Of a stretch of DNA of 39,868 bases, positions 3,103 through 22,548 are shown in pieces. The stretch's first letter is position 1, and each line of letters starts with the position of its first letter. The notes below the pieces were generated by a model that was not told where the DNA came from, searched no databases, and saw nothing but the letters and a program-made list of their open reading frames with translations. The position numbers and the translations under genes were made by a program. The stretch lies in contig CAAFEV010000196.1 of the NCBI GenBank assembly GCA_900762005.1, positions 1-39,868 on the forward strand, given 5' to 3'. This stretch comes from an uncultured Oscillospiraceae bacterium (GTDB taxonomy: Bacteria > Bacillota > Clostridia > Oscillospirales > Oscillospiraceae).

Positions 3103-5286
3103 CTACTTCTTCTCCGTGCCGGCATCCACGCGCTGCCGCGCAACCAGCTCGCTGAAAAATCCGTTTTTGGCAAGCAGCTCGTCATAGGTGCCGTCCTCGA
3201 TAATTTTTCCCTTGTCCAGCACTAAAATCCGGTCGCACTGCCGTATGGTGGAAAGCCGGTGCGCAATCACAATTCTGGTGCAGCGCAGACTATCCAGCGA
3301 TTGCGAAACCTGCTTTTGCGTGATGTTGTCCAACGCCGAGGTCGCCTCATCAAAGAAGAGAATGCGCGGCTTCGGTGCAATGGCGCGGGCAATCAGCAGA
3401 CGCTGCCGCTGTCCGCCCGAGATGCCGCCCGAGCCCTCGGAAATAATCGTGTGCATCTGCATCGGCATGGCGCGGATATCGTCGGCAATTCCCGCCATTT
3501 CCGCCGCCGCCCAAGCCTCATCAAGCGTCAGCCATGGCGCGGTAATCACGATGTTCGAGAAGATATCGCCGGAAAAGAGCTTGCCGTTCTGCATCACCGA
3601 GCCGATGCTGCGGCGCAGGGATTTCAAATCCAATGCGGAAATATCCTTGCCGTCATAGTAAATCGCGCCCTTTTGCGGCGTTTCAAAGCCTAAGAGCAGC
3701 CGCATCAGTGTGGACTTTCCGCAGCCGGTCGTGCCGACAATGGCGATATACTGTCCGCTTCGGATTTTCAGGCTGAGGTTGTCAATCACGAGCGGCGCAT
3801 TTTCGTCATAGCGGAAGGAGACATTGTTGACCTCGATTGCGCCCGTGAGCCGTGTGACGACCTTTTTCCCCTGTGATATTTCCGGTACCGACTTTAAAAT
3901 CGGCTCAACCATGTGCAGGGTCGGCCGGATGTCCGCAATTTGCACCGCCATGCCCGCCAGCTGCAAAAATGCGCCGACCACCATGCCGTAGGCGGCATTG
4001 AACGCCATATATTCCGCGACGGAGATTTTCGCCCGCACAGCAAGAAAGTAGATAACCGCCACGCCGATTGCAGAAATAAAGGAGGACACCGCCGCATACG
4101 CCTGCGGATAGTACTTATACGTCAGTACGTTTTTATACAGCCCCGCCCACTTGGCAAAGGCGCGTTTTTCCGCGCCGGAGATTTTGACCTTCTGAATGCC
4201 GGAGAACAGCGAATACACCAGACCGCTCTCCTTCGCGCGCGCCTCGAGCAGCTTATCGGAGCACTTCATCTGCCAGACCGTGACCAGTACCGCAAAGCCG
4301 CAGGTCGCTAAAATAATCAGAATCGCCGGCAGCGCCAGCGCAGCGGAATAGTCAAAAATCTGGAACAGATAGACCAGAGAAAAAGCCGCGCTGAGCCCGG
4401 AGGCGAGCACAATCTCCACGAGCAAATCACAGAGCTTGGCAACGCCGGCCGTGCGGCTTGCCAGATTACCCGCGCCATAGCCCTTGAAAAAGCCGGCAGG
4501 CAGGGAGAGCACGCGCATCATCGTCGCCGCTTCGACGGCGATTTTCAACTTGGTCTGAATACGCGAAAGCATCAGGGATTTTGTGATGCCGAGCAGCGTG
4601 CTCGACACGGTAACGCCGAGCAGCAGCACCGCCGCCGCCAGCAAAAGCGCGGTGCTTTCGCTGAAAATCACCTGTCCGAACACCAGACTGTTGGTATATG
4701 CCGTCAGAAGTCCGATAAGCGCAACTGCCGCCGTTGCCGCCGCAAGAAACACATAGTCCGCAACTGAGAGCACATTGCCGATATAGCGCACAAGGTCGCC
4801 CGCAGTCATTGCCCGCAGGGGGAAGGGCTTATAAAAACAGATTGCCTCGCCGGTAAACCGTGCGGCGTTTTTGCGGTTGACGCGCACGCGCTTGCCCAGC
4901 GTCTTATCGTAATAGGTATAGCCGGAGAATCTGCCGGGAATCAGGGCGACAACGCCGTCCGGCGTTGCGCAAAGCAGCGCGCCGTAGCCGTCGCGGTACC
5001 AGCTTCCCTCCAGCTGCACCGTGCGGCGCATAATGCCGGAGGGGCGCAGAAGAAATTCCAGAATGTCGTTCAGGCCGCGCAGCTTGTCGGGCAGCTCCTG
5101 CATGGGTACGCGGTAAAAATCAAGGATTTCCTGCACGGCATCCGCCGTGCGCTTGGTATCGTCCGCCATCGCCGCGTCAAAGGGGTCCTTGCCCGTAACG
5201 ACCCCTGCCATCGCCGCAAACGCGGCAGAGAAGGCCGCATCGTCATGCACCATCCGCTGCTTTATTTGTTCGTCAAACCATCCCAT
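3103..5286 (-). CDS. NHLP/NHLM bacteriocin-system ABC transporter, permease/ATPase without active peptidase
   Basis: Degenerate N-terminal domain (RTVQLEGSWYRDGYGALL), TM region, GTTGCGKST, ISGGQRQR, FFDEATSALDN; paired with a C39-type ABC. Confidence 0.9.
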   Translation of the reverse strand: MGWFDEQIKQRMVHDDAAFSAAFAAMAGVVTGKDPFDAAMADDTKRTADAVQEILDFYRVPMQELPDKLRGLNDILEFLLRPSGIMRRTVQLEGSWYRDGYGALLCATPDGVVALIPGRFSGYTYYDKTLGKRVRVNRKNAARFTGEAICFYKPFPLRAMTAGDLVRYIGNVLSVADYVFLAAATAAVALIGLLTAYTNSLVFGQVIFSESTALLLAAAVLLLGVTVSSTLLGITKSLMLSRIQTKLKIAVEAATMMRVLSLPAGFFKGYGAGNLASRTAGVAKLCDLLVEIVLASGLSAAFSLVYLFQIFDYSAALALPAILIILATCGFAVLVTVWQMKCSDKLLEARAKESGLVYSLFSGIQKVKISGAEKRAFAKWAGLYKNVLTYKYYPQAYAAVSSFISAIGVAVIYFLAVRAKISVAEYMAFNAAYGMVVGAFLQLAGMAVQIADIRPTLHMVEPILKSVPEISQGKKVVTRLTGAIEVNNVSFRYDENAPLVIDNLSLKIRSGQYIAIVGTTGCGKSTLMRLLLGFETPQKGAIYYDGKDISALDLKSLRRSIGSVMQNGKLFSGDIFSNIVITAPWLTLDEAWAAAEMAGIADDIRAMPMQMHTIISEGSGGISGGQRQRLLIARAIAPKPRILFFDEATSALDNITQKQVSQSLDSLRCTRIVIAHRLSTIRQCDRILVLDKGKIIEDGTYDELLAKNGFFSELVARQRVDAGTEKK

Positions 5287-5299
5287 TTCCGCATCCCCC

Positions 5300-7483
5300 C
5301 TATTCGCTGGTAATCAGTCTGGTATACAGACCGCCGAGCGCAAACAGCTCGTCATGCGTACCGCGCTCGACGACCCTGCCGCGATCCATGACGATAATTT
5401 CATCGCAGTCGCGGATGGTGGAAAGGCGGTGCGCCACAACAATGCAGGTAATGCCGCGATCCTTGATGGATTTGACAACCTCATATTCCGTCTTTGCGTC
5501 CAGCGCACTGGTTGCCTCGTCCATGATGATAATTGTCGGGTCCTGCGCCAGAACGCGGGCAATTTCCATTCTCTGCCGCTGTCCGCCGGAGAAGTCCTTG
5601 CCGCCCTCCATGATTTTGTACTGATAGCCGCCGTCACGCTGCATGATGTCCTCATGAATCTGCGCATCGCGTGCCGCCATAATCATTTCAAAGTCCTCAA
5701 TGGAGGGATCCCACATCTTGATGTTGTTCGCAATCGTGTCCTCAAAGAGGATAATATCCTGATCGACCACCGCCAGAGAGCCGGTAAAAACCTCGCGGTT
5801 GATTTCGCCGATGGGCTTTCCGTCAAAGAGAATTTCGCCGCTCCACGGCTTGTAAAGACCGGAAATCAGCTTGGACAGCGTGGATTTTCCGCAGCCCGAG
5901 GAGCCGACAAAGGCAACGCGGCTGCCCGGTCTGAGCGTCATGCTGAAATGCTCAATCAGAGGCTTGCCGAGCCGTGCGTAGCCGAAGGTGACGTCGCGCA
6001 GCTCCACCGTGCCGGAGAGCTTGTCGTAGGACGCCTTATCCGACACATCGTTCTCGGTGTACTCCACATCGGCTGGATAGCGCAGGACATCCTCAATGCG
6101 CTCCATGTTGGTGCGCGTCTCCTGCAGCTTCTGTCCGGCGGCAATCAGCTTGCCTGCCGGGGCGGCAAAGGACGCCATATACCCCTGAAACGCCAAAATC
6201 ATGCCGACGGTAAATTCTCCGCGCATCGTTAAAAATACGCCGAGGATTAAAACCGCAATGTTGGCAAGCGAGGAAATGAAGCCCGGCAGCACGCCGAGGT
6301 ATTGGTTGATTTTCGCGTAGCGCACGTTTTGCGTATTGACGCTCGCCTGATAGCCCGCCCATTTTTCGTAATACCCGTTTTCCGCACCGGACGCCTTGAT
6401 GGACTCAATCATGCCGATGCCGTTGACGGTCATGCCCGCAAGCTTGCCGGCGTTGCGCATCTGCACGCGGGTGATGTTGACCTTTTTTGCCGCCGTCAGC
6501 CGCGCAACCAGCAGATTCAGCACAATTGAGAAAACGCCGACCACCGTCAGTATCAGGCTGTAGCGCAGCATGACAACGAAATAAACCACCATCATTATCG
6601 CATCAAGCAGCAGCGGTGCAAAGGTATTCATCAGCTCCTGCGCCACACTCTCGTTCTTCGTCTGGCGGTCGGCTATGTCGCCCGCCATGCGCTGAGAGAA
6701 AAACTCCATCGGCGCACGCAGCACGTGCCACATGAACGCGGAGTTGGAAATTATCGCCAGCTTTCCCTCCACCTTAAGCATATACAAGCCCTTAATCGCA
6801 AGCGTCAGCAGTTGAATTACCGCCAACGCCCCCAGCGCAAGGGTAAACGGATAGAGCCATTCCGGGTTCTTGCCCGCCAGCAGACGGTCAATGAACACAC
6901 GGGAAAACGCCGGATTTAACAGGCTTAACAGAATGCTGATAAAGCTGGTGGTGAGAATCAGCGCGAAGCCGACACCCGTTCCGCGCAGCCGGCTGAGCGC
7001 AAATTTCATGACGGATTGCGGCTTTCCGCCGGGGACAAATTCCTCCGTCGGGGTAATCACCATACACACGCCGGTAAAGCTGTTGTCAAACTCCTCCATC
7101 GACACGCGGATGCAGCCCTTTGCAGGGTCATTCAGCACCGCCTTGCCCTTGCGGAAGCCGTCCAGCACGACGAAGTGGTTCATATTCCAGTGGATAATGC
7201 AGGGGAATTTCCCCACCTTTTTCAGATCATCCACCTCGTAAAGATACGCCTTTGCAAGCATCCCATAGCTACGTGCGGCAATCAGAATGTTCTTCGCACT
7301 CGAGCCGTCACGGGAGACACCGCAGTCCGTGCGCACCTGTTCCAGCGGAAGAAATTTTCCGTAATACGCCAAAATCATCGTCAGCGAGGCGGCACCGCAT
7401 TCCAGTGCCTCCATCTGCATCACGACGGGCACCTTGGCACAGCCCTTTGTCACCGGGGCGGGGACTTTCCTCTTTTTTTCCAT
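5300..7483 (-). CDS. NHLP-family bacteriocin export ABC transporter, C39 peptidase/permease/ATPase
   Basis: QMEALECGAASL (catalytic Cys), HWNMNHFVV (His), LNDPA (Asp); GSSGCGKST, FSGGQRQR, DEATSALD. Confidence 0.95.
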   Translation of the reverse strand: MEKKRKVPAPVTKGCAKVPVVMQMEALECGAASLTMILAYYGKFLPLEQVRTDCGVSRDGSSAKNILIAARSYGMLAKAYLYEVDDLKKVGKFPCIIHWNMNHFVVLDGFRKGKAVLNDPAKGCIRVSMEEFDNSFTGVCMVITPTEEFVPGGKPQSVMKFALSRLRGTGVGFALILTTSFISILLSLLNPAFSRVFIDRLLAGKNPEWLYPFTLALGALAVIQLLTLAIKGLYMLKVEGKLAIISNSAFMWHVLRAPMEFFSQRMAGDIADRQTKNESVAQELMNTFAPLLLDAIMMVVYFVVMLRYSLILTVVGVFSIVLNLLVARLTAAKKVNITRVQMRNAGKLAGMTVNGIGMIESIKASGAENGYYEKWAGYQASVNTQNVRYAKINQYLGVLPGFISSLANIAVLILGVFLTMRGEFTVGMILAFQGYMASFAAPAGKLIAAGQKLQETRTNMERIEDVLRYPADVEYTENDVSDKASYDKLSGTVELRDVTFGYARLGKPLIEHFSMTLRPGSRVAFVGSSGCGKSTLSKLISGLYKPWSGEILFDGKPIGEINREVFTGSLAVVDQDIILFEDTIANNIKMWDPSIEDFEMIMAARDAQIHEDIMQRDGGYQYKIMEGGKDFSGGQRQRMEIARVLAQDPTIIIMDEATSALDAKTEYEVVKSIKDRGITCIVVAHRLSTIRDCDEIIVMDRGRVVERGTHDELFALGGLYTRLITSE

Positions 7484-7493
7484 GACCGCGCCC

Positions 7494-7979
7494 TCAGCCG
7501 AAAATGTAATCCAGCGGACGGATTTGCTCCGTCACAATCTCCGCGCGTGCAAACGTGCCGTCCGTCAGTGCATCTGCAAGCGTCAGCTCCACTACATAGC
7601 TCCATTCCGGCAGGGCAAGGCAGTACAGCGCGTATTCGTCCGCGCCGCTTTCCGTCTGCGCCCGGTCGCGGGAAATCGGCTTTGCGGAAACAGCGGTAAC
7701 CGTGCCGTGTACGCCGTTGACCGTGACCTCCTGCCCCTGCATGATGCCGGAGGCATCCGCCATATAGCAAACGAGCTTGCCGTCCCTGGCAACGCCGGAC
7801 GCAGTTACGGTGGTATCCAAGCTGCCGACCGCCGCCCAAACAAGCAGCGCAATCAGCAGCGCAGCCGCAGCCGCAAGCACCAGCCAGATGCCGGGGTTGG
7901 AGATTTTTATGTAGTCATGCAGCTCCTCCGGCGAGGACACCTTCTTTACGCTCTCTTTTCGGAAAATCGTTTCTGCCAT
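7494..7979 (-). CDS. NHLP bacteriocin-system secretion accessory protein (short HlyD-like)
   Basis: IFRKESVKKVSSPEELHDYIKISNPGIW N-terminus, one TM helix, C-terminal EQIRPLDYIF; GAAAGGA RBS before ATG 7979. Confidence 0.82.
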   Translation of the reverse strand: MAETIFRKESVKKVSSPEELHDYIKISNPGIWLVLAAAAALLIALLVWAAVGSLDTTVTASGVARDGKLVCYMADASGIMQGQEVTVNGVHGTVTAVSAKPISRDRAQTESGADEYALYCLALPEWSYVVELTLADALTDGTFARAEIVTEQIRPLDYIFG

Positions 7980-8057
7980 TTTTGTTACGCATCCTTTCAT
8001 CTGTTGCTCTGCTGCGTCGGTCAGGCAAGGGGTCGTAGTTCGGATTCTCTTCCTCCA

Positions 8058-8086: not shown

Positions 8087-8179
8087 GTTTTTTTGCTTAA
8101 AAGCCAAAAAAACCTTTCGCAACCGCAAAAAATGTGGTATCTTGTGGTTATCAACTCCGAGAAAAGGAGGTGTGCGTCC

Positions 8180-9433
8180 GTGCATTCGGAATGGAGCTAT
8201 CTCATATACTTATACGTATGCGGTGCCGCTTCTGTTAGTGCCGAAGCACCGAAGGAAGCAATTTCCTGGCAAATCCTCTGGTCGCTTGCACAGCAGCAGG
8301 CAATTACCGGTGTGATTGCACACGCGCTGCGCCGTTCGCCCGCGCTCGACTGTCCGGCAGATATACGCAACGAGGCAACTTCCTTTCTGCTCGGCAACGC
8401 GCTGTCTAACACCGCACAGCAGGAGGCGGTGCTGCGGATAATTGCCATGCTGGAGCACAACGGATTGCATCCCGCCGTCCTGAAGGGCATGGATGTCGCC
8501 CGGTTTTACGCCTACCCCGAATGCCGCAGCTCCGCCGACACGGATTTGCTCCTGCCCGCGCAGGAGGAGGAAGCGGCACTCAGGCTGCTGGCACAGGCGG
8601 GCTTTCAAATTGAGCGGCGTAGTGAACAGACGCACCACAGCTCTTGCTTCCGTGCAGACACGGGACTGCTGGAGCTGCACGGACGGCTCTGGAGCACCGT
8701 CGCGGAGCAGGGCGTCTTTGCCGGGCGCGGTGCTGCGCTTTTACCGCTCGGCAGTACGCGGCACGTCCCCTTTGCCGGAACGCAGCTTCCCGTTTTGCAG
8801 GAGACAGACGCTCTGCTGTTTCTGGCGATGCATCTGATTAAGCACTTTGCCGTGCAGGGCACCGGCGTGCGCATGGCATACGATTTCACTTTATATTATG
8901 CAAGCAACCGCGCGCATATCGACCGCGCCCGCTTTTGGCGCGTCATGGAGCAGCTGGGCTTTGCAGGAATCGTGGGCGGCATTTTCGGCATCTTTGTGCG
9001 CTGGGGCGGCTTTTCGGCGCAAACCCTCGATGCGCCGCACCTGCCGGACGAGCAGACCTGCCGTCTGCTGCTGGAGGATTTTGCCAATTACTCCACCGCT
9101 GAGGTAATTGATGTCTCCTTAATCAACGAAGCATGGGTGCTTTTCTGCAAACGTACCGCCAGACGCACCGGTAAAGGCTATCGTTTGCGTATGGCACTGC
9201 GCCGTCTCGGCACACGGGTACAGCTGCTCTTTCCGAGCGCAAAGGTCCTTGCGGTGCAGTATCCCTATTTAAGCAAGCACTGTTTTCTCTACCCTGTCGC
9301 CTTTACGCAGCGTTTTTTTGCGGTGCTCTGCAGCAAAGAGCGTCGCCGCGCTACCCGCGTCCTGCACGATCCCCGCACCGTCACGGGTAAAACGCAACAG
9401 CGCGCCGCCCTGTTTGAGGCTTTGGGCATTTAG
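8180..9433 (+). CDS. nucleotidyltransferase family protein (NTP_transf_5-like)
   Basis: VLKGMDVARFYAYPECRSSADTDLL motif, LELH, HLIKHF...G.R...D; AAGGAGGT RBS before GTG 8180. Confidence 0.88.
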   Translation: MHSEWSYLIYLYVCGAASVSAEAPKEAISWQILWSLAQQQAITGVIAHALRRSPALDCPADIRNEATSFLLGNALSNTAQQEAVLRIIAMLEHNGLHPAVLKGMDVARFYAYPECRSSADTDLLLPAQEEEAALRLLAQAGFQIERRSEQTHHSSCFRADTGLLELHGRLWSTVAEQGVFAGRGAALLPLGSTRHVPFAGTQLPVLQETDALLFLAMHLIKHFAVQGTGVRMAYDFTLYYASNRAHIDRARFWRVMEQLGFAGIVGGIFGIFVRWGGFSAQTLDAPHLPDEQTCRLLLEDFANYSTAEVIDVSLINEAWVLFCKRTARRTGKGYRLRMALRRLGTRVQLLFPSAKVLAVQYPYLSKHCFLYPVAFTQRFFAVLCSKERRRATRVLHDPRTVTGKTQQRAALFEALGI

Positions 9434-9703: not shown

Positions 9704-9916
9704 ATGAGTGAAAATAAGATTGATTTGAAGGAAGCCAAGAAAATGGCCGAGGAGGCCGGCGTTGAGCTGACCGACGATGTCATTGACCTGATTTCCGGCG
9801 GTGCTATCCCTGTTGAAATTTGGAATGAGATGCCGCCCGAAGAGCGTCGCGCTGCCCAGCAGCTTTCCATTTTTAACAAGTTCGTCTTGAAGCAGCCCTG
9901 CGCACTCGACCCGTAA
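9704..9916 (+). CDS. candidate RiPP precursor 1, double-glycine (Nif11/NHLP-like) leader
   Basis: AAAGGAG RBS; 33-aa leader ending AEEAGVELTDDVIDLISGG; 37-aa core AIPVEIWNEMPPEERRAAQQLSIFNKFVLKQPCALDP. Confidence 0.88.
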   Translation: MSENKIDLKEAKKMAEEAGVELTDDVIDLISGGAIPVEIWNEMPPEERRAAQQLSIFNKFVLKQPCALDP

Positions 9917-9985: not shown

Positions 9986-10210
9986 ATGTATCAAGCACCT
10001 GATTTCGTCAAGGTTTCCGTAAAGGTCAAGGACGTTTTTGCCGGATACGCGCAGAAGTGCCCGTACGATTTTATGGACACCTCGTCCTACACCACCAACC
10101 CGCCGATCGTTACAAACTGCCCCACTACCGATCCGAACTATACATACTCCGCATATATTTACACGGCAGTCATGGCGCCGGCAAACTGCTACAGTACTTT
10201 AAATATGTAA
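9986..10210 (+). CDS. candidate RiPP precursor 2, YxxP (RRE-binding type) leader with Cys/Tyr/Thr-rich core
   Basis: AAGGAGG RBS; MYQAPDFVKVSVKVKDVFA leader; Cys25, Cys45, Cys68; directly upstream of kinase, PqqD and radical SAM genes. Confidence 0.85.
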   Translation: MYQAPDFVKVSVKVKDVFAGYAQKCPYDFMDTSSYTTNPPIVTNCPTTDPNYTYSAYIYTAVMAPANCYSTLNM

Positions 10211-10219
10211 TTCCCCGCC

Positions 10220-11089
10220 ATGGGCATTTTCCCGGTATCATCCGAACAACTGAATTTACTGGATATCGGCAGGCGGTTTTCCCCTTTTTCAAACGAGGCG
10301 TGTAAACTGCCCGTTTGTTATGTCCATTTTTATACACGGGAGGACTTTGCGGCGGCATCGGCGCAATTTTCCGCCTTTTCCGCATACATTGCAAAATGTG
10401 AGCGCGGCGAGACCATTTCCGGCGAGCTTTCCGTCAACGAATTCGGCTTTTCGCCGCTGACAGACGGCATTGCCCTGCGCGATGACGAGCCGGTTTTTAT
10501 TTGGCTGCACAACGCTTACCGCCGGATGGAGGTTGTATTGCCTGCCGGCTTTGCTACTCCGCACCGCATGGAGCATCTGGCCATGCGCGCTTACCAGTAC
10601 ACCGCCGTAATGAGCGATTTTTTCCTGCTGCACGCTGCCGCCGTCGAATACTGCGGCGCGGGGATTGCCTTTTGCGGCATTTCCGGCGCGGGAAAAAGCA
10701 CGCAGGCACGGCTTTGGAGCCGTACCTACGGTGCAAGCGCAATCAACAACGACCAGCCCTGCGTATTCTTTGATAACGGCTCCGCCTTTTTACACGGCAC
10801 ACCGTGGAGCGGCAAGGAGCCGTGCTACCGCAACGAGTACTTCCCGCTGCGTGCGATTGTCTTTGTCGAGCAAAGCACGACCGAGCGCGTAGAGCGGCTT
10901 TCCGCCGCCGAGGCCTTCTCCCTGCTGTATCTCAACAACCGGATGCTGCCGATATATCCCGCGCCCGAAGCGGCCTATACCGCACTGGCGGAACGGCTTG
11001 CCACCTCGGTGCCGGTTTACCGCCAATTTTGCTCGGCAACCGAGCTTGCCCCGCATACTCTGCGGCAGGCACTTTTCGGAAAGGATTAG
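10220..11089 (+). CDS. HPr-kinase-like P-loop protein (ScmC / RiPP-associated kinase type)
   Basis: LLHAAAV...FCGISGAGKSTQARLW...INNDQP...GTPWSGK. Confidence 0.8.
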   Translation: MGIFPVSSEQLNLLDIGRRFSPFSNEACKLPVCYVHFYTREDFAAASAQFSAFSAYIAKCERGETISGELSVNEFGFSPLTDGIALRDDEPVFIWLHNAYRRMEVVLPAGFATPHRMEHLAMRAYQYTAVMSDFFLLHAAAVEYCGAGIAFCGISGAGKSTQARLWSRTYGASAINNDQPCVFFDNGSAFLHGTPWSGKEPCYRNEYFPLRAIVFVEQSTTERVERLSAAEAFSLLYLNNRMLPIYPAPEAAYTALAERLATSVPVYRQFCSATELAPHTLRQALFGKD

Positions 11090-11094
11090 AAGCT

Positions 11095-11373
11095 ATGACA
11101 CACTATACCGCGAAAAAGCACTTTGCACTCAAGGAAATTGCCGGAGAGTTCCTCCTGATGGCACGCGGTCCCGAAGCACTGGATTTCAGCGCGGTTATCG
11201 TATTCAATGAGACCGGCGTTTTTCTTTGGAACGCACTTGCCCTGCCGCGTACCGCCGAGGAGCTGGCGCAGCTGCTTGCCGCGCAGTTTTCTCTGTCCCC
11301 CGCAGAGGTCAGCGGAGATGTTGCCGCGTTTTTAAAGAAAGCAGAAGAAGAGGGCCTGCTCTGTATCGAATAG
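11095..11373 (+). CDS. PqqD-family RiPP recognition element (stand-alone RRE)
   Basis: 92 aa; LKEIAGEFLL...FNETGVFLWNAL...EELAQLLAAQF...DVAAFLKKAEEEGLL. Confidence 0.92.
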   Translation: MTHYTAKKHFALKEIAGEFLLMARGPEALDFSAVIVFNETGVFLWNALALPRTAEELAQLLAAQFSLSPAEVSGDVAAFLKKAEEEGLLCIE

Positions 11374-11535: not shown

Positions 11536-12702
11536 ATGTCTCTTTACGATAAAATTAAATCGTCCGACAATCCCATAAAGGCCTACGGCGATGCGCTTGT
11601 TCAGCTCACTGCGCAAAATCGCTCGCTCTGTGTTGCAACACTTGAACTCAGCCCGGTGTGCAACTTTACCTGCCCGTTCTGCTTTGCACGGCAGTCTGCG
11701 CAAGCCCTTGCCGCCAAGGGTGAGCATATTCTGCGCTTTGACGGCTGGCAGCGGATTATCGACGGTCTTTCGGAAATGCAGGTAATGTCACTGAGCTTTA
11801 CAGGCGGCGAATGTATGCTCCATCCGGATTTTACCCGCATCTATCGTTATGCCTACGAAAAAGGCTTCGAAATCTCCTTGTTGTCCAACGGCTCTGCAGT
11901 AACCGACGAAATCATTCGTCTGTTTTGCGCCTGTCCCCCGCAGAGTATGTATTTCACCGTCTACGGCGCATCGCCGGAAACCTATGAAACCGTCTGCGGC
12001 AATGCGCTCTGGTACGAGCGCGTGCTTGCCAACCTTCGCAAAATGAAGGAGGCGCAGCTCCAGTTTGCCTTGCAGTTCACCGCCGACAAGGAAAATCTCG
12101 CCGATATGGAGCAGATTTATGCCCTTGCAAAGTCACTGGACGTTCCGGTGCGTCAGAACGGACTGTTTATCGCTTACGGCGAATGCAGCAGCGAAACAGC
12201 GCAGGCGCGGGAGGCGGATCCGGCGGAATTTGAACGGATTTCCAAGCAGCTTTATTTTCAGGAGCATCAGACCACCGAGCAGGAATACTTACAGCGTCCC
12301 GTGGCTGCCATAACACCGGTGCAACAGCCGGTGATTGAAAAGGGCATCCCCTGCACGGCGGGCAGAAACGCCTGCTATATCGACTATCGCGGGGTTATGA
12401 CCCCCTGCGTCATTTTTGACGCAATTTCCGTTGACACCGCCGGAAAGACCATCAGGGAATGCTGGCAGCAGCTCGTCGCCGCCTGTGACGAGGTGCCGCG
12501 CTTGGTCGAATGCACGAACTGTCTGCACCGTACCAAATGCAAAACCTGCATTGCCGCACATTATAACGACACCAAGCAGTTCGGGAAGCCCTCTCCCCGT
12601 CTGTGTTATAAGCTGAAATATCCCGAAAAGGCAAGGGAAATTGAGGAACGCTTTGCCCGCGAGGGACATCTGCGCTCCGATATTGACTTGATTAAGGCAT
12701 GA
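11536..12702 (+). CDS. radical SAM/SPASM-domain peptide maturase
   Basis: CNFTCPFC (CxxxCxxC), FTGGE, SNG; SPASM CTAGRNACYIDYRGVMTPC...CTNCLHRTKCKTC...C; start 11536 (alternative 11524). Confidence 0.93.
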   Translation: MSLYDKIKSSDNPIKAYGDALVQLTAQNRSLCVATLELSPVCNFTCPFCFARQSAQALAAKGEHILRFDGWQRIIDGLSEMQVMSLSFTGGECMLHPDFTRIYRYAYEKGFEISLLSNGSAVTDEIIRLFCACPPQSMYFTVYGASPETYETVCGNALWYERVLANLRKMKEAQLQFALQFTADKENLADMEQIYALAKSLDVPVRQNGLFIAYGECSSETAQAREADPAEFERISKQLYFQEHQTTEQEYLQRPVAAITPVQQPVIEKGIPCTAGRNACYIDYRGVMTPCVIFDAISVDTAGKTIRECWQQLVAACDEVPRLVECTNCLHRTKCKTCIAAHYNDTKQFGKPSPRLCYKLKYPEKAREIEERFAREGHLRSDIDLIKA

Positions 12703-14882
12703 TGCAGCCGAAAAACACCGTCGCCGTACTGGGCGACGTGCATGACGGGGCACAGGTCTGCCGGATTGCCGAGGGGGAAACCGAATACATTTGGAAACCC
12801 CGCAATTCCGATACGGAGCTCGCCTTTGCCGCCTTTTTGCAATCGCTCGGCGAGGCGGGCTTTCCCTATTTACCGGGGCAGGTCCGGCTTGTGAAGCAGG
12901 GGGACGGTTGGCACACCGAGCTGCCTGTGGCACATTCCTCCACAGATGCAGACGGTATCCGCCGCTATTACCGGCGTGCCGGTGCCTTGGTTTTCCTTTG
13001 CTATCTGTTCGGCGCGACCGATTTACACGCAGAGAACTTAATTGCAGACGGGGAGTATCCCGTTTTGGTTGATCTGGAAACCCTGCTCGGCGCACCGGCC
13101 GCCCGCACCGTTGACCCCGAGGAGCGTTCGCTGCTCGGCTCGGTGCTCCATTCGCACCTTTTGCCGGTCTTTCAGACGGGCGAAGCCGCCGTGCAGGACG
13201 TAAGCGGATTGTCCGGCGTAACCGCGCAGGGCGCAAACCTGCCGCTGTTAAACGGTGTGCCGCAGAAGATTACGCACTATTGTTCCGAGCTGGCCGAGGG
13301 CTTCGCGGCTGCTTACCGTTTTGCCCTGACCCATACCGAATTGTTTGACGGACTGCTCGGTCTGTTTGACCGCTGCCGCTTTCGGCAGCTGCTGCGTCCG
13401 ACCGCGACCTATGCCGCCTTTCTTTCTGTGCTTGCCGTCGCGAAGCCGCTACAGCGAGAGCCACTGGCGCAGACGCTTGTCATCCGCGCCTATGCGCGTG
13501 ATGTTGACCCGCAGCGGGCGCAGATTGCCGCCGAGGCGATTCGCGCCGAGCGCGAAGCCCTGCTGCACGGTGAAATTCCGCTGTTTTACACCTATGGCAA
13601 CGAAACCGGCCTGCGCAGCGGTGGAAAATCGGTGCTGGACGGCTTTCTGCTCTGTTCACCGGTGGACTGCGCACGCCGCCGTCTGCATCGGCTCGGCGAA
13701 GCCGACCTTTGTAAGCAGCAAACGCTTCTCGAATTGAGCTATCATGCGCTTGCTCCCCTGCCGCCGCACAGTCCGGCGAAAAGCGGCGACCCGCTCGCGG
13801 CAATCGCGGCGGAATTAGAGCACTGTGCCGTGCCCGGGTTGCCGAACGGCTATTTCCGCCTTACCCACGATACCAACGGGCGCGCCTTTTTTGAGAGCGT
13901 CGGCTTCGGTCTTTACGATGGGCTGACGGGCATTGCCTGCTGTTACGCCGCCTTTTATGCCAAAAGCGGGCAGGCGCAATGGCTTGAACGGCTCGACAGG
14001 CTGCTTGCTCCTTTTGCACAAGCCGTGCTTGACCGTCCGTTTTCCGCCCCGCTGTCGGACAGTGTCTGCGCCCTGTCAAACGGGCTTGGCGGGATGATTT
14101 CCGCCCTGTTGCATATCGCGCAGTTGACCGGGCGGGACGAATGGCGCACCGCCGCAGAGGGCTTGGCGCAAAAGCTTGACCCCGCCCGTACCGGTGCACT
14201 TTCCGCCGATTTGCTCAACGGCGGCGCGGGGCTTGCCTTGTGTCTGCCCCGGCTTTCAGGTCAGACCGCCCTGCCGCTGGCGCAGGCACTTGCTCCGACG
14301 CTTGAAGCGGCTGAGCCTACGCTGACCGGCACCGCCCACGGCGCGGCAGGTCTTGCGCTGACACTCGGTGCACTGCAAACGGTGCTCGGCGACGGTCGTT
14401 ATGACGGGAAAATTCTCTCCCTTTTACAATGGGAAAATCAATATTACTGCGAGGAACAGCGGAATTGGCGCGATTTGCGCAAGCCGGAAAAGCCCGCGTT
14501 TATGCGCGGCTGGTGCTCCGGTGCACCGGGCATCGGTATGGCGCGCAGCCGTCTGCTTTCCTACAGCCGCGACAGTCGCATCCGCGCAGTATGCGAGACG
14601 GATATTGCGCGTGTCAAGGACTTTTTATCTCTTGCAAACGACGATGCACGCGCCACGCTCTGCTGCGGTCTTGCCGCAAGCGTCATGGCAGGCTCCTGTC
14701 TCGGTGCGGTAAACGACGCGCAGTATGCCGCGCTTTGCGCTGTAACAAGCACTGCCGCGCCGGAGCTGCTGCACCCGCTGCAAACGGGCGACGATAACGT
14801 ATCCCTAATGCAGGGACTATCCGGCGTCGGCTATGCCCTTGCCCTGTGCGGCAATCCCTTGAGCGGAGGAATGCTGCTTTGA
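12699..14882 (+). CDS. lanM: compact class II lanthipeptide synthetase-like protein (DUF4135 dehydratase + LanC-like cyclase)
   Basis: GDVH, WKPR, DLHAENLI, VDLETL, RQLLRPTATY, GEIPLF; cyclase LYDGLTG, GTAHGAAG, WRDLR, WCSGAPG, LCCG, LMQGLSGVGY; only 727 aa. Confidence 0.85.
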   Translation: MMQPKNTVAVLGDVHDGAQVCRIAEGETEYIWKPRNSDTELAFAAFLQSLGEAGFPYLPGQVRLVKQGDGWHTELPVAHSSTDADGIRRYYRRAGALVFLCYLFGATDLHAENLIADGEYPVLVDLETLLGAPAARTVDPEERSLLGSVLHSHLLPVFQTGEAAVQDVSGLSGVTAQGANLPLLNGVPQKITHYCSELAEGFAAAYRFALTHTELFDGLLGLFDRCRFRQLLRPTATYAAFLSVLAVAKPLQREPLAQTLVIRAYARDVDPQRAQIAAEAIRAEREALLHGEIPLFYTYGNETGLRSGGKSVLDGFLLCSPVDCARRRLHRLGEADLCKQQTLLELSYHALAPLPPHSPAKSGDPLAAIAAELEHCAVPGLPNGYFRLTHDTNGRAFFESVGFGLYDGLTGIACCYAAFYAKSGQAQWLERLDRLLAPFAQAVLDRPFSAPLSDSVCALSNGLGGMISALLHIAQLTGRDEWRTAAEGLAQKLDPARTGALSADLLNGGAGLALCLPRLSGQTALPLAQALAPTLEAAEPTLTGTAHGAAGLALTLGALQTVLGDGRYDGKILSLLQWENQYYCEEQRNWRDLRKPEKPAFMRGWCSGAPGIGMARSRLLSYSRDSRIRAVCETDIARVKDFLSLANDDARATLCCGLAASVMAGSCLGAVNDAQYAALCAVTSTAAPELLHPLQTGDDNVSLMQGLSGVGYALALCGNPLSGGMLL

Positions 14883-15328
14883 CGGAGCTTTATTTTGACC
14901 ATGAGCAGCTGGAGCAGTTGCTTGCCGAAACCGTTTTTCGCGGAGAACGGCTCACCGTTTCCGGCTGCGGGAACAGTATGGCTCCCTTTATCTGCGAGCA
15001 GACGGACAGGGTTGTGCTTGCACCGCTGACAAAGCGCACACGCAAAGCAGGTAACATCTGCCTTTACAAGCGTCCGAACGGACAGCTTGTCATGCACCGC
15101 ATCTGCCGCATCCACGGCGGCTTATGCGATATGCGCGGGGATAATCAGCTTTATATCGAGCACGATGTCGCGCAATGCCAACTGCTGGCGCAGGTTGTGC
15201 AGGTCATCAGACCGAAGCAGACCGTGCGCTGCGACACCGTCCGCGCAAGGCTGCGGTGGCGATACGGGACTCTGCGGTGCTTTGCCGCACGTATCCGCAA
15301 TCGCTTGTTGAAAAAGAAACGAGGATAA
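14879..15328 (+). CDS. S24/S26-family peptidase (signal-peptidase-like, no TM anchor)
   Basis: GNSMAPFI (Ser), LVMHRI (His), RGDN; GGAGGA RBS before TTG 14879, which overlaps the lanM stop. Confidence 0.88.
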   Translation: MTELYFDHEQLEQLLAETVFRGERLTVSGCGNSMAPFICEQTDRVVLAPLTKRTRKAGNICLYKRPNGQLVMHRICRIHGGLCDMRGDNQLYIEHDVAQCQLLAQVVQVIRPKQTVRCDTVRARLRWRYGTLRCFAARIRNRLLKKKRG

Positions 15329-15332
15329 CTCC

Positions 15333-17027
15333 ATGAGGCGAATTAAGAATCTTTTCGGGAAAATCAAGGACAACAAGGGTAACGCCCGCTGGCTGCTCGC
15401 GCAGAGCAGCGGCACCAAAAAGTATGTCTTCGGCTTTCTGCTGATTAGCTTCTTTTCGATGCTCTTTTCTCTGGCAAGCCCGATTGCGAGTAAATACGTT
15501 GTTGACGCCGCCACCGGCAAGCGTACCGATTTTCAGCTCTACTATGTGCTGATTATGCTCGGCTCTACGGTCATCTCAATTCTGCTGGGCATTGTGTCGA
15601 ACCTGTTCGGCAGCTATGTCAACGAAAAATATGCCTTCAATGTCCGCGCAAAAATGTTTGACCGCGTGCAGCGCAGCAGCTGGAAACGAATTTCAAAATT
15701 TCACACCGGCGATATGCTCTCGCGCCTTACCTCCGACATTGACAACATCGCCACCAACATCATCAGCCTGCTGCCGAGCATGATTATTACCGCGTTGCAG
15801 CTGGTCATTATTTTGATTGTCGTGCTCAGAACCGACCCGACGCTTGCCCTGATTGGCCTGATTGTCGGTCCCTTCGGGCTGTTGATTACGATTTTTTATC
15901 GCAAGCCCTTCAGCCGCTATCAAACCGCGTTGCGTGAGAGCCAATCGGAGTATTATACCTTCTTTCAGGAGTCGCTGGGCAATCTCAGCGTGGTCAAGGC
16001 GTTTGAGCTGGAGGACCGAAACAACGAGCACTTTCAGGATATTCGTGACCGCCGCTTGAAAACCGTGATGAAAAGCGCACGGCTCAGCTCCGCCATGAGC
16101 GCGTCCATGCGCATGGTTTACAGTCTCGGCTATGTACTGGCGTTCGGCTGGTGCGCTTATCAGCTGCGCACCAATCCGGGCTATACCTACGGCACTATGA
16201 CACTCTTTCTTTCGATGGTTTCGATGATTCAAAGCTCGGTACAGAGCTTGGGCGGGGTTGTGCCGAAGTTTTATTCTATGCTGGTCTGCGCCAAGCGCGT
16301 GCGCGAAATTACCGAGCAGGAGCCGGAGTCAGCCGTCTCGCAGGCGGCTGTTCCGGAGCGGGCGGGGCTGCGCGTGCAGAACGTCAGCTTTACCTATGAA
16401 AATGAAATTGTTTTGAGGAACATTTCCTTCACGGTTGCGCCCATGCGCCGTGTCGGCATCATCGGCTCGTCCGGCGCAGGCAAAACAACTCTGATTCGTC
16501 TGCTTCTGGCACTGGTTATGCCGGACAGCGGCAGTCTGGAATTCACCTGCGGTGACACCGCCGAGCCAAGCTCGTCCGCAACCCGCCGCCTGATATCCTA
16601 TGTTCCGCAGGGTAACACGCTCTTAACCGGCACGGTGCGCGAAAATCTTCTCACAGGTAACCCCGACGCCTCCGACGCGGAGCTTTGGCGCGTCCTGGAG
16701 CTGTCGGACGCGGCGGATTTCGTGCGCAAAGACCCCAACGGGCTGGATATGGCAATCCGTGAGGGCTCCGGCGGTTTGTCCGCAGGACAGGCACAGCGTA
16801 TCGGCATCGCCCGCGCACTGGTGCGCAACCGCCCGGTGTTGATTCTCGACGAGGCAACCAGCGCACTCGATGAGGCAACCGAGCGGCGTATCTTCGAGCG
16901 CGTTGTCTCTGAATGCGGTAAGACCTGCTTCATCATTACGCACCGCAGCTCCATGCTGAAATACTGCGACTGCGTCCTCGAAATCAACGATGACGGAACG
17001 GCAAAAATGACCGACAGGGAGGACTGA
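15333..17027 (+). CDS. ABC exporter, fused permease/ATPase
   Basis: TM domain with HTGDMLSRLTSD; GSSGAGKTT, LSAGQAQR, ILDEATSALD. Confidence 0.95.
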   Translation: MRRIKNLFGKIKDNKGNARWLLAQSSGTKKYVFGFLLISFFSMLFSLASPIASKYVVDAATGKRTDFQLYYVLIMLGSTVISILLGIVSNLFGSYVNEKYAFNVRAKMFDRVQRSSWKRISKFHTGDMLSRLTSDIDNIATNIISLLPSMIITALQLVIILIVVLRTDPTLALIGLIVGPFGLLITIFYRKPFSRYQTALRESQSEYYTFFQESLGNLSVVKAFELEDRNNEHFQDIRDRRLKTVMKSARLSSAMSASMRMVYSLGYVLAFGWCAYQLRTNPGYTYGTMTLFLSMVSMIQSSVQSLGGVVPKFYSMLVCAKRVREITEQEPESAVSQAAVPERAGLRVQNVSFTYENEIVLRNISFTVAPMRRVGIIGSSGAGKTTLIRLLLALVMPDSGSLEFTCGDTAEPSSSATRRLISYVPQGNTLLTGTVRENLLTGNPDASDAELWRVLELSDAADFVRKDPNGLDMAIREGSGGLSAGQAQRIGIARALVRNRPVLILDEATSALDEATERRIFERVVSECGKTCFIITHRSSMLKYCDCVLEINDDGTAKMTDRED

Positions 17028-17029
17028 GA

Positions 17030-17824
17030 ATGCGCTTTGCTTATGCCGGCTTTGACCTGCTATACCCCGCAATGCAGGCACTTTTGGATTGCGGAAATAC
17101 CGTCTGCAAGCTTTTTACCTGCAAAACAGACCAGATTACGGAGTTCAATACCCAAGTGATTGCGCTTGCAAGCTCCCACAGCATCCCCTATACCGAAAAG
17201 AAGCTGACCCTTGCGGATTTGCAGGAGCTGCAGGCAACAGGCTGCGACGCCCTTTTGTGCGCCGGCTATTACTATCGCGTGCCGATTTTACCCGGCTTTC
17301 CGATGATTAACGTGCATCCCTCCTTTTTGCCCGAGGGGCGCGGCGCGTGGCCGATGCCGGTGGCGATTTTACGGCAGCTTCCCATCGGCGGCGTGAGCTT
17401 CCATAAAATGGAGGCCTCGTTCGACACCGGGGACATTCTGTTACAGCGCAGCTTTCCGCTTTCGCCGCGGGAAACACTGGAAAGCTATATGCAAAAGCTC
17501 TACGCGCTGCTGCCCGCGATGCTTCGGCAGCTAACCGGGCAATTCGACTCACTGTACGCACAGGCAACGCCGCAGGGCGAGGGGAGCTATTGGGACTGCC
17601 CCACCGAAAAGGACTGGACGGTGGAATGCACCATGACGGCGGAGCAGGCAGACCGGATATTGCGCGCCTTTTACGGCTATGAGTGCATCTATTCCAACGG
17701 CAGCGAGCGTTACGAGTTCATCGGCGGACGCTGCGTTGCAGGCAGCAATGAGAAGCGGGAATTTCCCGTGCAGGGAGGCTATCTCCTTGCAGATAAAATC
17801 AGAAAGTTGAATGAAGCATCATGA
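17030..17824 (+). CDS. formyltransferase family protein (Fmt-like, 10-formyl-THF dependent)
   Basis: INVHPSFLPEGRGAWP and FDTGDILLQ motifs; 264 aa with a short C-terminal region. Confidence 0.85.
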   Translation: MRFAYAGFDLLYPAMQALLDCGNTVCKLFTCKTDQITEFNTQVIALASSHSIPYTEKKLTLADLQELQATGCDALLCAGYYYRVPILPGFPMINVHPSFLPEGRGAWPMPVAILRQLPIGGVSFHKMEASFDTGDILLQRSFPLSPRETLESYMQKLYALLPAMLRQLTGQFDSLYAQATPQGEGSYWDCPTEKDWTVECTMTAEQADRILRAFYGYECIYSNGSERYEFIGGRCVAGSNEKREFPVQGGYLLADKIRKLNEAS

Positions 17825-18702
17825 TTACCACGCATGAGCAGACCGTTCCGATTGCCCCGGTGCACCAAGCACCAATCGAAGCCCTGCGAAGAAAATATCA
17901 TCACACGCTCTCCTCGCACGCCTTTGTCTCGCTCTACCTCTGGCGTGAGGAGATGCGGCTCTCCCTGTATTTACGCGATGACTGCTTCAGCGCACGCTGC
18001 GGCTGGAAGGGCGAAAACGCATGGTTTTTCCCCTGCGGCAGTGAAGCGGCAAAGCTTGCCTTTGTTGCAGAGCACGGACAGGAGCCTGACTTCCGCCTGT
18101 GCTATCTGCGTGAAGCCGACCGGGATTTTCTGCAAATGCACTTCCCACAGGTATATCGGCTTGTCCGGGATGAAAACTCCGACGAATACCTTTACGACCG
18201 CGTCGGTCATTTGCTGCTCAGGGGCGGACGTTACGCCAATGTGCGCACGCAGGTGCACCGCGCCGAGCGCGATTACGCGCTGACCGTTCAGCCGCTGGAT
18301 GCCGAAGCCTGCCCCAAGGCGGTGGAGATTGTCCGCCAATGGGCAAGCCTTCCTCATCCGTTTGTCTGCGGACTTAACGACGACAAGGTGGACGAGGAGG
18401 CAATTAAGCGTCTGCCGGAATTACAGATGCAGGGTGTTTTGGTTTCGGTAAACGCAGAACCCTATGCCGTCTGCGCGGGCTTTCCCCTGAGCGGGGACAC
18501 CTTTGACCTGTGCGTCGCGAAATGCCGCAAGAACCTGCCCGGCTTGTCTTACTACGCCAAACGTGCGCTGTTTCAAGTGCTGGAGCCGCGCTTCACTTAT
18601 ATTAACCTAGAGGAAGACCTCGGCATTCCCGGTCTGCGCGAAATGAAGCAGCTGCTGGCGCCCGTACAAAAAAACGAAATATGGGAGGCGACTCGGCTCT
18701 GA
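17821..18702 (+). CDS. DUF2156 / phosphatidylglycerol lysyltransferase-domain protein (aa-tRNA-dependent transferase fold)
   Basis: SHAFVSLYLW, DENSDEYLY...LRGGRYANVR, YINLEEDLGIPGLREMK. Confidence 0.82.
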   Translation: MITTHEQTVPIAPVHQAPIEALRRKYHHTLSSHAFVSLYLWREEMRLSLYLRDDCFSARCGWKGENAWFFPCGSEAAKLAFVAEHGQEPDFRLCYLREADRDFLQMHFPQVYRLVRDENSDEYLYDRVGHLLLRGGRYANVRTQVHRAERDYALTVQPLDAEACPKAVEIVRQWASLPHPFVCGLNDDKVDEEAIKRLPELQMQGVLVSVNAEPYAVCAGFPLSGDTFDLCVAKCRKNLPGLSYYAKRALFQVLEPRFTYINLEEDLGIPGLREMKQLLAPVQKNEIWEATRL

Positions 18703-20429
18703 AAAAGATAAATGACCGTTTTACGGGAAATATGTTCCGCCGACTGTTCCTGCCGTCCCTGTTCTCAGCGTTCGGGCTTGCCTTCGCGGATATGGCGGAC
18801 GCGCTGGTGGTCGGTCAGCGCATGGGTGCAACAGGCCTGGCGGCTATCAGCTTGTCTTTGCCCGTGTACATGATTATCAATCTGTTTATGCACGGCTTCG
18901 GCGGCGGCGGCTCGGTGCGCTACTCCAAGCTGCTCGGCGAGGGACGCAAGGATGACGCAGTGCGCAGCTTCAACCGCGTGGCGCAGGCGGCTCTTGCCGT
19001 CAGTATCGTCATGGCAGTGCTCGGCAATCTGTTTTTAGAGCCGCTGCTCTCCGTGCTGGGCGCGGCACCCGAAAATCAGGAGCTTTACAACGCCAGCCGC
19101 GAGTATGTGCAGATTATCGTCTGCGGCATTCCGCTGTTCTTCTTCGCATATATTCTGAATTATTATCTGCGCAACGACGATAATCAGCGGCTTGCCAGTG
19201 TTGCCTTCATCATCGGCAACGCGGTGGACATCGGGTTAAATATTCTCTTTGTGCTGGTTTTGGACCTTGGCGTCAAGGGCGCGGCGTACTCCACGCTGAT
19301 TGGCTATGCCGTCTCCATCTGCTGTTACCTGCCGGGCCTGTTCTCCAAAAAGCACACCCTGCGCGTGCGCACGGTCAGACCCGGCATCAGGGAGGCTTTC
19401 TCCTGCTTTGCAACAGGCTTTTCCACCTCGTCGCAATATCTGATGCAAATGCTTTTCTTTATCATCGTCAACAACACGCTTTTGCGCATGATGAACGGCA
19501 GCGAGAGCGGCGTCGCCGTCTTTGATATGCTGCAAAACGCCTCGTATCTGGTGCTCTATCTCTACGATGCAGCCGCAAAAGCAGCGCAGCCGTTGGCAAG
19601 CACCTACTGCGGCGAGCAAAATCGGCAGGGCGAACGCAATACGCTGCGCTATGCGCTGATTTTCGGCTCGCTTGCCGGCGCGGCAATGGCACTGCTGCTG
19701 TGCCTGTTCCCCCACACAATCTGTGCCCTGTTCGGGCTGGGAGAGGCTTCGTTGATTGCAATGGCAACCCCCGCTCTGCGCATCTACTGCGGCGGTCTGC
19801 TTCTTGCCGGTGTCAGCATCATTTTGGAGAGCTATTTTCAGTCCTGTGACCGCGAAAAAGCAGCTTTCGCCCTCACGCTGCTGCGCGGTGCGGTAATTCT
19901 GCTGCCGGTGACGCTGCTGTTCTCCCTGTGCTTCCCGATTGCGCTCTTCTGGTGGCTCTTCCCCGTCACCGAGGCTCTGACCCTACTCCTATTCTTCGTG
20001 CTGCTGCCGCGCTTCAAACGCAAGGCACTTCCGGCAGAGCGCATTTTGGAACGTACCATCAAAAACAAAAACGAGGATCTGGGCGACCTTACCCAAGCGG
20101 CAGAGGTCTTCTGCGAGCAATGGGAGGCTACGCCGAAGCAGACCTATTTCGTCACCATGACGATTGAGGAAATCTGCCTTGCAATTATGCTCAACGCCTT
20201 TGACCAAACGGAAAACGGCTTTATTCAGATGACCTTAGTTGCCTTGCCCGACGGACTTTTTGAGCTGCATCTGCGCGACAACGCAACGGCGTTCGACCCG
20301 TTCTCCTTAGTGACCGAGGGCGCGGGCTTCAACATCGACGCGGCAGGCATGACCGTTATCAAAAACAAAGCAAAGGACTTTTTCTACCGACGCTATCAGG
20401 GCTTTAATGCACTGGTGGTGCGCATATAA
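18681..20429 (+). CDS. MATE-family efflux transporter fused to a C-terminal HATPase_c (RsbW-like) domain
   Basis: MATE motifs (ADALVVGQRMGATGLAAI, NILFVLVLDLGVKGAAYST); C-terminal EEICLAI...LRDNATAFDPF...YRRYQGFN. Start is ATG 18681 or CTG 18699 (GGAGG at 18684). Confidence 0.85.
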   Translation: MGGDSALKKINDRFTGNMFRRLFLPSLFSAFGLAFADMADALVVGQRMGATGLAAISLSLPVYMIINLFMHGFGGGGSVRYSKLLGEGRKDDAVRSFNRVAQAALAVSIVMAVLGNLFLEPLLSVLGAAPENQELYNASREYVQIIVCGIPLFFFAYILNYYLRNDDNQRLASVAFIIGNAVDIGLNILFVLVLDLGVKGAAYSTLIGYAVSICCYLPGLFSKKHTLRVRTVRPGIREAFSCFATGFSTSSQYLMQMLFFIIVNNTLLRMMNGSESGVAVFDMLQNASYLVLYLYDAAAKAAQPLASTYCGEQNRQGERNTLRYALIFGSLAGAAMALLLCLFPHTICALFGLGEASLIAMATPALRIYCGGLLLAGVSIILESYFQSCDREKAAFALTLLRGAVILLPVTLLFSLCFPIALFWWLFPVTEALTLLLFFVLLPRFKRKALPAERILERTIKNKNEDLGDLTQAAEVFCEQWEATPKQTYFVTMTIEEICLAIMLNAFDQTENGFIQMTLVALPDGLFELHLRDNATAFDPFSLVTEGAGFNIDAAGMTVIKNKAKDFFYRRYQGFNALVVRI

Positions 20430-20451
20430 TAATGGAAAGGAAGAGAATGCC

Positions 20452-22152: not shown

Positions 22153-22535
22153 CCTCACAAACCGCTCAGATTACCGCAGAAGACGTCCGCCGGTTTGTTG
22201 AGGAAGAATTTAAAAAAATGGACGTGCCGCGCACCGTCGCAAGCAAAATGTATATCGCCGTCGATGAGATTGTCTCCAACATTCTGCAATACAGCGGTGC
22301 CGGAGAACTGACACTGTGCTGCGAAATCTCTCCGCAAGCCGTTATGCTCTCCTTCTCCGACAACGGCACCCCCTATGACCCGCTTGCCAAGCCGGACCCC
22401 GATGTGACATTGGCCCTTGATGAGCGCGAAATCGGCGGCTTGGGTATCTTCATGGTGAAAAAAAGCATGGATGCCATGGACTACCGCTTTGCAGACGGAA
22501 AGAATATACTGACTTTAAAAAAACTTATCGTATAA
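22137..22535 (+). CDS. RsbW-like anti-sigma factor / Ser kinase (HATPase_c_2); start anomalous
   Basis: IAVDEIVSNILQYS, FSDNGTPYDPL, REIGGLGIFMVKKSMD, GKNILTL. The first ATG is 22218, but the domain-like frame is open from 22116; the inferred start position 22137 reads ATC. Confidence 0.8.
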   Translation: MKKSLTSQTAQITAEDVRRFVEEEFKKMDVPRTVASKMYIAVDEIVSNILQYSGAGELTLCCEISPQAVMLSFSDNGTPYDPLAKPDPDVTLALDEREIGGLGIFMVKKSMDAMDYRFADGKNILTLKKLIV

Positions 22536-22548
22536 AGGAGAACAGATT

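Follow-up and report, generated by a model that had tools for sequence, protein, structure and literature searches.

Can a class II lanthipeptide synthetase (LanM) that lacks its N-terminal region still be a working enzyme, and on which precursor would it act? The question is raised by a gene in the 39,868-nucleotide stretch of contig CAAFEV010000196.1 (assembly GCA_900762005.1, from an uncultured Oscillospiraceae bacterium) that is called the window here. The gene encodes a small LanM-like protein, termed the short LanM, among genes for two putative precursor peptides (P1 and P2), a radical S-adenosylmethionine (SAM) enzyme, and a stand-alone PqqD-type recognition element (RRE) for peptides made on the ribosome and modified after translation (RiPPs). 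A preliminary description made from the letters alone had proposed that PqqD or the radical SAM enzyme may recruit the substrate in place of the missing region. The best explanation of the sequence evidence is that the protein is a functional, naturally minimized class II lanthipeptide synthetase in which the kinase N-lobe (five strands and a helix), the C-lobe, the kinase-activation (KA) residues, and the zinc cyclase are kept. It would probably make one lanthionine in P1, while PqqD serves P2.

An in-frame TAA at positions 12693-12695, two codons before the start of the short LanM, means that the frame cannot be extended 5′; a second ATG at 12702 is a possible true start. As first described, the gene overlaps both neighbors, by ATGA with the stop of the radical SAM gene (12699-12702) and by TTGA with the start of the S24/S26-like peptidase gene (14879-14882), with GGAGG at 14865-14869. 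One chain carries the Pfam domains DUF4135 (residues 10-176, profile positions 52-227 of 378) and LANC_like (401-715), and the protein scores 362 bits with the LanM profile TIGR03897 against a cut-off of 304, the match beginning at profile position 144. The dehydratase motifs KPR, DLHxEN, DLE, and RxxxRPT and the cyclase motifs AHG, WCxG, and CCG, all said to be retained, were found in the frame, with GD-x-H at residues 12-15 and the zinc site of the cyclase at Cys606/Cys655/Cys656. Two further reductions had escaped the preliminary description: about 28 residues are missing after residue ~175 relative to LicM2 and TIGR03897, and the cyclase loops are shorter. The ~28-residue segment is also missing in seven top-scoring full-length LanMs. 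By its domains and residues, the protein is a LanM family member of non-canonical architecture.

An AlphaFold2 model of the short LanM, obtained with 19 sequences, had a predicted local distance difference test score (pLDDT) of 90.6 and a predicted template modeling score of 0.88. Its best fold matches were CylM (5DZT; Foldseek E 4e-29, VIA Z 32.2) and LicM2 (6ST5; Foldseek E 9e-21, VIA Z 25.1). Model residues 2-727 aligned to CylM 240-991 and LicM2 233-1020, with a root-mean-square deviation of 8.5-10.3 taken over two domains. In CylM (PMC4550811), residues 5-131 and 180-200 form the capping helices and residues 135-279 the N-lobe, with the P-loop at 247-262; with the alignment starting at CylM 240, the short LanM therefore begins just before the P-loop. 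The comparison with CylM that had been suggested as a check rests on a confident model and bears out the N-terminal loss, which on this model amounts to the capping helices and the first half of the N-lobe, about 240 residues. Capping helices and a full N-lobe (CylM 5-239) are typical of canonical LanMs, though not class-defining. The first elements that remain in the model are three strands, a helix at residues 38-52, and two strands, an order we take to be that of a canonical kinase N-lobe. DprM-type LanMs bind long leaders through a loop at the interface of N-lobe and capping helices, as far as described in the accessible part of PMC12537861, and the segment lost here includes the equivalent of that loop (the equivalent of CylM 162-177).

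A profile of the lost segment was built from 70 full-length LanM N-termini and searched to E ≤ 10. Of 83 held-out full-length LanMs it recovered 82, and it detected all 56 control loci; none of the 45 short LanMs was matched, and no separate open reading frame (ORF) for the segment turned up in 32 short-clade loci or in the bacterium's own genome (84.5% complete). Encoding of the missing N-terminus elsewhere was rejected on these results, and a frameshifted fusion to the upstream gene was rejected as well, since the upstream gene varies among loci.

Searches for homologues returned 18 proteins of 696-737 residues at 36-48% identity and then, after a gap, LanMs of 935-1120 residues at 24-31%. 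The short set, defined as proteins of 690-800 residues scoring at least 600 bits in a profile search, comprised 45 proteins of 696-760 residues that share the short start and are 27-48% identical to the query. GDxH stands at residue 6-14 in 41 of the 43 short rows with a readable pattern (6 of 49 had no match); its median position is 267 in 153 full-length rows. All 23 loci with a whole short LanM, which are the basis of the cluster counts below, have an in-frame stop 11-47 codons 5′ of GDxH, behind differing upstream genes. Residues K33, D108, H110, N113, D125, E127, H15, R229, and C655 are invariant in 41 of 41 short LanMs, and D13, T235, H547, C606, and C656 are kept in at least 90% of the 41. 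They correspond to CylM K274, D347, H349, N352, D364, D252, H254, R506, and T512 and to the zinc ligands; the phosphorylation and elimination residues and cyclase zinc ligands (Cys, Cys, and His or Cys) of class II synthetases are all present. The ratio of nonsynonymous to synonymous substitution rates (dN/dS) was 0.20, 0.21, and 0.12 in the three closest short-LanM pairs. The common start, the retained catalytic residues, and these ratios agree with the earlier suggestion of a stable short form; close homologues that are all full length, together with relaxed selection, would have marked a remnant, and this pattern was not found.

The main short-LanM group forms one clade (SH-aLRT 100). P0120 and P0122, short LanMs of 758-759 residues at 27% identity to the query, fall outside it in the trees and possibly represent a second truncation; two origins are not supported, as a single clade was not rejected (approximately unbiased test, p 0.42). 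The top-scoring full-length LanMs were considered as a sister group, since they too have CCG and lack the internal segment; the trees did not resolve such a relationship. Named records of the short LanM come from metagenome-assembled genomes of Acutalibacteraceae, Ruminococcaceae, Oscillospiraceae, Lachnospiraceae, and other Clostridia, several labeled ruminant gut. The form is rare, occurring in 2 of 401 genomes of the order and in none of 60 close-relative genomes of the genus and order; a plasmid search returned ordinary LanMs only and no short form. Judged from their sequences, the short LanMs form a conserved family, apparently functional, among Clostridia of the gut and rumen.

The CCG zinc motif is present as first described; the promiscuity that it was thought to signal is not indicated. 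The available portion of a review ties CCG to low specificity in ProcM (PMC12328550). The motif was found in 45 of 49 short high-scoring rows (four unread); of 136 full-length relatives in which this site could be read, 81 have it too. Because it is so common among the latter, CCG is an unremarkable feature of these sequences that does not imply promiscuity, and we rejected it as a special trait of the short LanM. A single Ser/Cys pair is fixed in the likely substrate, and the own genome, within the completeness given above, holds one P1 and one P2 match only, not the many diverse precursors of ProcM-like LanMs.

Wherever a locus extends far enough upstream (20 of 20), both P1 and P2 are encoded; the other three loci end within ~2 kb upstream of LanM. 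The 33-residue leader of P1 has a double-Gly motif with hydrophobic residues at −4, −7, and −12, and the P1 profile matches both halves of Nif11-like leaders. No PF07862 match was obtained, TIGR03798 matched only 4 of 22 P1s (E ≥ 0.014), no Nif11 or NHLP (nitrile hydratase leader peptide) profile scored over its cut-off, and the ESM Atlas returned no match to P1 at or above 0.9. The core that follows was modeled as two helices (pLDDT 72.7) and has an invariant Trp40, Ser55, and Cys66. The Ser and Cys are invariant in 22 of 22 cluster P1s, and S-x(9-12)-C recurs in 107 of 110 P1 homologues, the remaining three being one cut-short and two leader-only matches. With 110 homologues and no profile over cut-off, P1 is, on sequence criteria, a new conserved double-Gly precursor family. 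Two variants, L012:2247-2393 and L015:4335-4475, keep the Ser and Cys without most of the helical stretch and would be natural minimal substrates. Duplicated precursors also occur, with two P1 genes in locus L084 and two P2 genes in L010 and L022.

Each of 23 P2s from LanM clusters has exactly three Cys, compared with 2, 3, or 4 in clusters lacking LanM, and P2 has no positionally fixed Ser or Thr. In 16 of 23, x-x-D/E comes after the first of these Cys, presumably a ranthipeptide pattern that fits radical SAM thioether donors, and we assume its YxxP leader to be of the lasso type bound by an RRE. The cluster radical SAM enzyme has a Cys-rich C-terminus but reached the cut-off of no NCBIfam maturase, and P2 matched none of the precursor families. 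Of the P2s from LanM clusters, 2 of 23 end in Ser, versus 14 of 18 P2-like peptides from LanM-less clusters. Lasso-type kinases modify a C-terminal Ser, according to the accessible text of PMC9266682; with P2 so rarely ending in Ser, such a residue does not readily account for the target of the HPr-like kinase in the LanM clusters.

Assignment of the two peptides came from loci outside the short-LanM clusters. A related radical SAM enzyme is encoded in 25 of the 401 genomes, and among 27 such loci examined, 26 had neither a LanM nor a P1 match, most of them with kinase and RRE matches; the 27th, L191, has LanM and P1, and its precursor sequences show it to be the L015 cluster. In 18 of these 26 LanM-less loci, pattern matching and inspection by eye picked out Cys-rich peptides with a YxxP leader that resemble P2. 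A P1 search of the 401 genomes gave matches in 10, of which eight had leader-only matches and two matched the core, both with a short LanM, so that whole P1 and short LanM fall in the same 2 of 401 genomes. Full-length high-scoring LanMs adjoin double-Gly-type precursors in L091, L125 (Nif11, S-x8-C), and L157. Since whole P1 was found in these genomes only with the short LanM while the P2 module occurs without LanM in 26 loci, LanM most likely acts on P1 and the RRE on P2.

The short LanM would phosphorylate and dehydrate Ser55 of P1 to dehydroalanine (Dha) at the expense of ATP; zinc-assisted addition of Cys66 would then close one lanthionine ring, and the C39 transporter would cut P1 at the double Gly and export the product. 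P2 would be matured in parallel by the RRE and radical SAM enzyme, with the kinase and nucleotidyltransferase, before cleavage by the S24/S26 peptidase and export by the plain ATP-binding cassette (ABC) transporter, giving a two-peptide product or two co-regulated peptides. The weakest step is recognition of P1. A remodeled surface on LanM is proposed because the usual leader site is lost, and P1 would probably be recognized through that surface and its own conserved helical segment following the double Gly. The short clade conserves Asp268 and Arg273 in the KA region and His692, Thr696, and Asp698, whereas the ten full-length top matches do not, which makes these residues candidates for P1 recognition.

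Several observations weigh against a LanM devoted to P1. The short LanM gene is embedded in the P2 operon, with coupling to the radical SAM or kinase gene and to the S24/S26 gene; it co-occurs with an RRE in 21 of 23 loci and with a radical SAM enzyme in 22 and was never seen without that module on long enough contigs. The clusters share one ancestor, so that co-occurrence counts are not independent, and the genome-level count amounts to two genomes. P2 cores are 18% Ser/Thr. A whole peptidase-containing (C39) ABC transporter (PCAT) is encoded in only 10 of 23 loci, and none was seen in the long loci L011, L022, and L023. The LanMs of L012 and L015 keep D268 and R273 despite the reduced P1s there, which weakens the proposed recognition element. 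As to selection, 170 of the 276 pairs had saturated dS, and the copy in the window lacks a close partner. Finally, the capping helices of CylM are proposed (PMC4550811) to keep its KA domain and activation loop positioned in the active form, so that the activity of a LanM without them is not guaranteed.

Among the alternatives, recruitment through PqqD or the radical SAM enzyme is less favored. Worked out in detail, that proposal would have PqqD bind the YxxP leader of P2 and hand P2 to the short LanM, replacing the lost site, and LanM dehydrate and cyclize Ser/Thr and Cys of the variable P2 core, with or without acting on P1 as well. The placement of LanM within the RRE/radical SAM operon, without which it was never seen on long enough contigs, the three invariant Cys and the Ser/Thr content of P2, and the loss of the DprM-type loop would all suit such a handover, which we nevertheless hold to be unlikely: no Ser or Thr of P2 is fixed in position, P2-like peptides accompany RRE and radical SAM where there is no LanM at all, and the invariant Ser and Cys of P1 are left unexplained. 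Where the RRE is fused, moreover, it is to the HPr-like kinase (10 of 23 loci); no RRE-LanM fusion and no short-clade match above 760 residues was seen.

A more doubtful proposal is that LanM joins the two peptides, a Cys of P2 attacking the Dha formed from P1 Ser55, and/or P1 Cys66 linking to P2, to give a heterodimeric RiPP. P1 would be a conserved helical carrier with an export signal and P2 a variable, radical SAM-modified cargo, and leader binding would be dispensed with. P1 and P2 adjoin in all 20 loci having them, the P1 core is unusually conserved and helical, and the Cys number of P2 is fixed only in the LanM clusters; for nostolanthin oligomers, intermolecular methyllanthionine has been proposed in the part available of a preprint, probably formed there without an enzyme. 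P1 has its own Cys 9-12 residues from the Ser, however, a separate peptidase and exporter are kept that fit P2 alone, and the x-x-D/E pattern after the first P2 Cys fits radical SAM thioether donors. We give equally little weight to a short LanM that is incomplete alone and needs the kinase, the N-terminal helices of the radical SAM enzyme, or P1 to stabilize its active site, or that only eliminates and cyclizes phosphoserine supplied by the HPr-like kinase. The role of the capping helices in CylM and the retention of a kinase whose P2 seldom ends in Ser would be accounted for, but the residues for phosphorylation never vary, the fold is modeled with confidence in the absence of any partner, and neither the loci nor the genome contain an ORF similar to the lost segment. 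A decaying remnant, split gene, or assembly artefact is highly improbable, as only the short length and the metagenomic origin of all records speak for it, against a shared start in 23 loci and in 45 proteins at 27-48% identity to the query, invariant catalytic residues, dN/dS of ~0.1-0.2, and no separate N-terminal gene.

Features of the short-LanM cluster in the window
Feature	Position	Strand	Description
ECF (extracytoplasmic function) sigma factor and small upstream ORF	2929-2384, 3185-2889	-	possibly regulatory; immediately behind the genes of the NHLP transporter; pair recurs in L019 only
NHLP-type export operon	3103..8000	-	HlyD-like 8000-7494, C39-peptidase ABC 7483-5300, second ABC subunit 5286-3103; probable P1 exporter
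NTP_transf_5 nucleotidyltransferase	8093..9433	+	Pfam; start codon not fixed; in 15/23 loci
Promoter-like site 5′ of P1	9557-9585	+	consensus match only
P1 precursor	9704..9916	+	70 aa; leader (1-33) of telescoped Nif11-like double-Gly type, then a helical core; proposed LanM substrate
Strong stem-loop between P1 and P2	9925-9953	+	consensus match only
P2 precursor	9986..10210	+	74 aa; YxxP leader, variable core, three invariant Cys; proposed radical SAM/kinase substrate
HPr-kinase-like protein	10220..11089	+	His, GKST, N-x-D kept; profile match weak, below cut-offs
Stand-alone PqqD/RRE	11098..11373	+	PF05402, E 9e-14
Radical SAM enzyme	11536..12702	+	Cys-rich SPASM-like C-terminus
Short LanM	12699..14882	+	727 aa; kinase/dehydratase reduced to the part from the P-loop onward, then KA region and LanC-like cyclase
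S24/S26-like peptidase	14879..15328	+	SM-x-P and HR motifs conserved; weak match; probable P2 leader peptidase
ABC exporter without peptidase domain	15333..17027	+	Pfam

Across the 23 loci, the HPr-like kinase and the S24/S26 peptidase are each encoded in 22 and the plain ABC transporter in 17. The NHLP operon of the window scores over cut-off with TIGR03796 (926 > 853) and TIGR03797 (717 > 709). Its HlyD-like adaptor has ~160-170 residues versus 421 in the TIGR03794 model, with a similar length in homologous loci, and the small ORF upstream of the ECF sigma factor ends in a motif resembling a double-Gly leader. Downstream, positions 17030-22845 (+ strand) hold one run of genes for a formyltransferase, an LPG_synthase_C protein, a MATE protein with a C-terminal extension, a SpoIIE phosphatase, an anti-sigma kinase, and a STAS protein; these had no matches in the other short-LanM loci and are not counted with the cluster.

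The LanM-less module (L192-L217) is widespread; present in ~24 of 401 genomes, it combines the radical SAM enzyme, HPr-like kinase, and RRE, often with an S24/S26 peptidase, ABC transporter, and nucleotidyltransferase, and the own genome carries it on contigs C248 and C144 (L216 and L217). With Cys-rich YxxP precursors, 14 of 18 of them ending in Ser, it looks like the radical SAM equivalent of phosphorylated lasso clusters. At L219, L223, and L226, in genomes without a LanM match, Nif11-like double-Gly precursors form arrays.

CylM and LicM2 have the lipid-kinase-like dehydratase, LanC-like cyclase, and catalytic residues in common with the short LanM, which has no counterpart of CylM 1-239 (N-lobe 135-239; capping helices 5-131 and 180-200), of the internal segment, or of several cyclase loops, and has CCG where CylM has Cys911/His912. 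ProcM and SyncM share the CCG motif with the short LanM; ProcM-type enzymes act on many variable Nif11 precursors, whereas short-LanM clusters usually have one conserved precursor with one Ser/Cys pair. The NHLP/Nif11-leader LanMs DprM, OspM, and MppM, compared here by their description in the available text of PMC12537861, have double-Gly precursors, single-Cys cores, and clusters with radical SAM enzymes, an RRE, and several transporters, as here, but bind the leader through the loop that the short LanM has lost, and the P1 leader is only 33 residues long. Paeninodin- and pseudomycoidin-type lasso clusters (PadeK kinase, PsmN nucleotidyltransferase, RRE) show the same RRE, HPr-like kinase, and nucleotidyltransferase beside a YxxP precursor; here, a radical SAM enzyme and S24/S26 peptidase replace the lasso cyclase and B2, and P2 mostly lacks the C-terminal Ser. 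No short or N-terminally truncated LanM and no such cluster was found described in the literature searched, most subscription papers and supplements being outside that scope, so that earlier notice there is possible.

The region lost from the short LanMs is the reported site of leader binding in other LanMs and the proposed holder of the CylM activation loop. Enzymes that keep the catalytic residues without it offer a ready-made test of how LanMs recognize leaders and stay active, and the short LanM, ~25-30% smaller, is a candidate compact cyclization catalyst. The cluster pairs a new P1 family with an RRE/radical SAM/kinase module, an architecture not found described in that literature.

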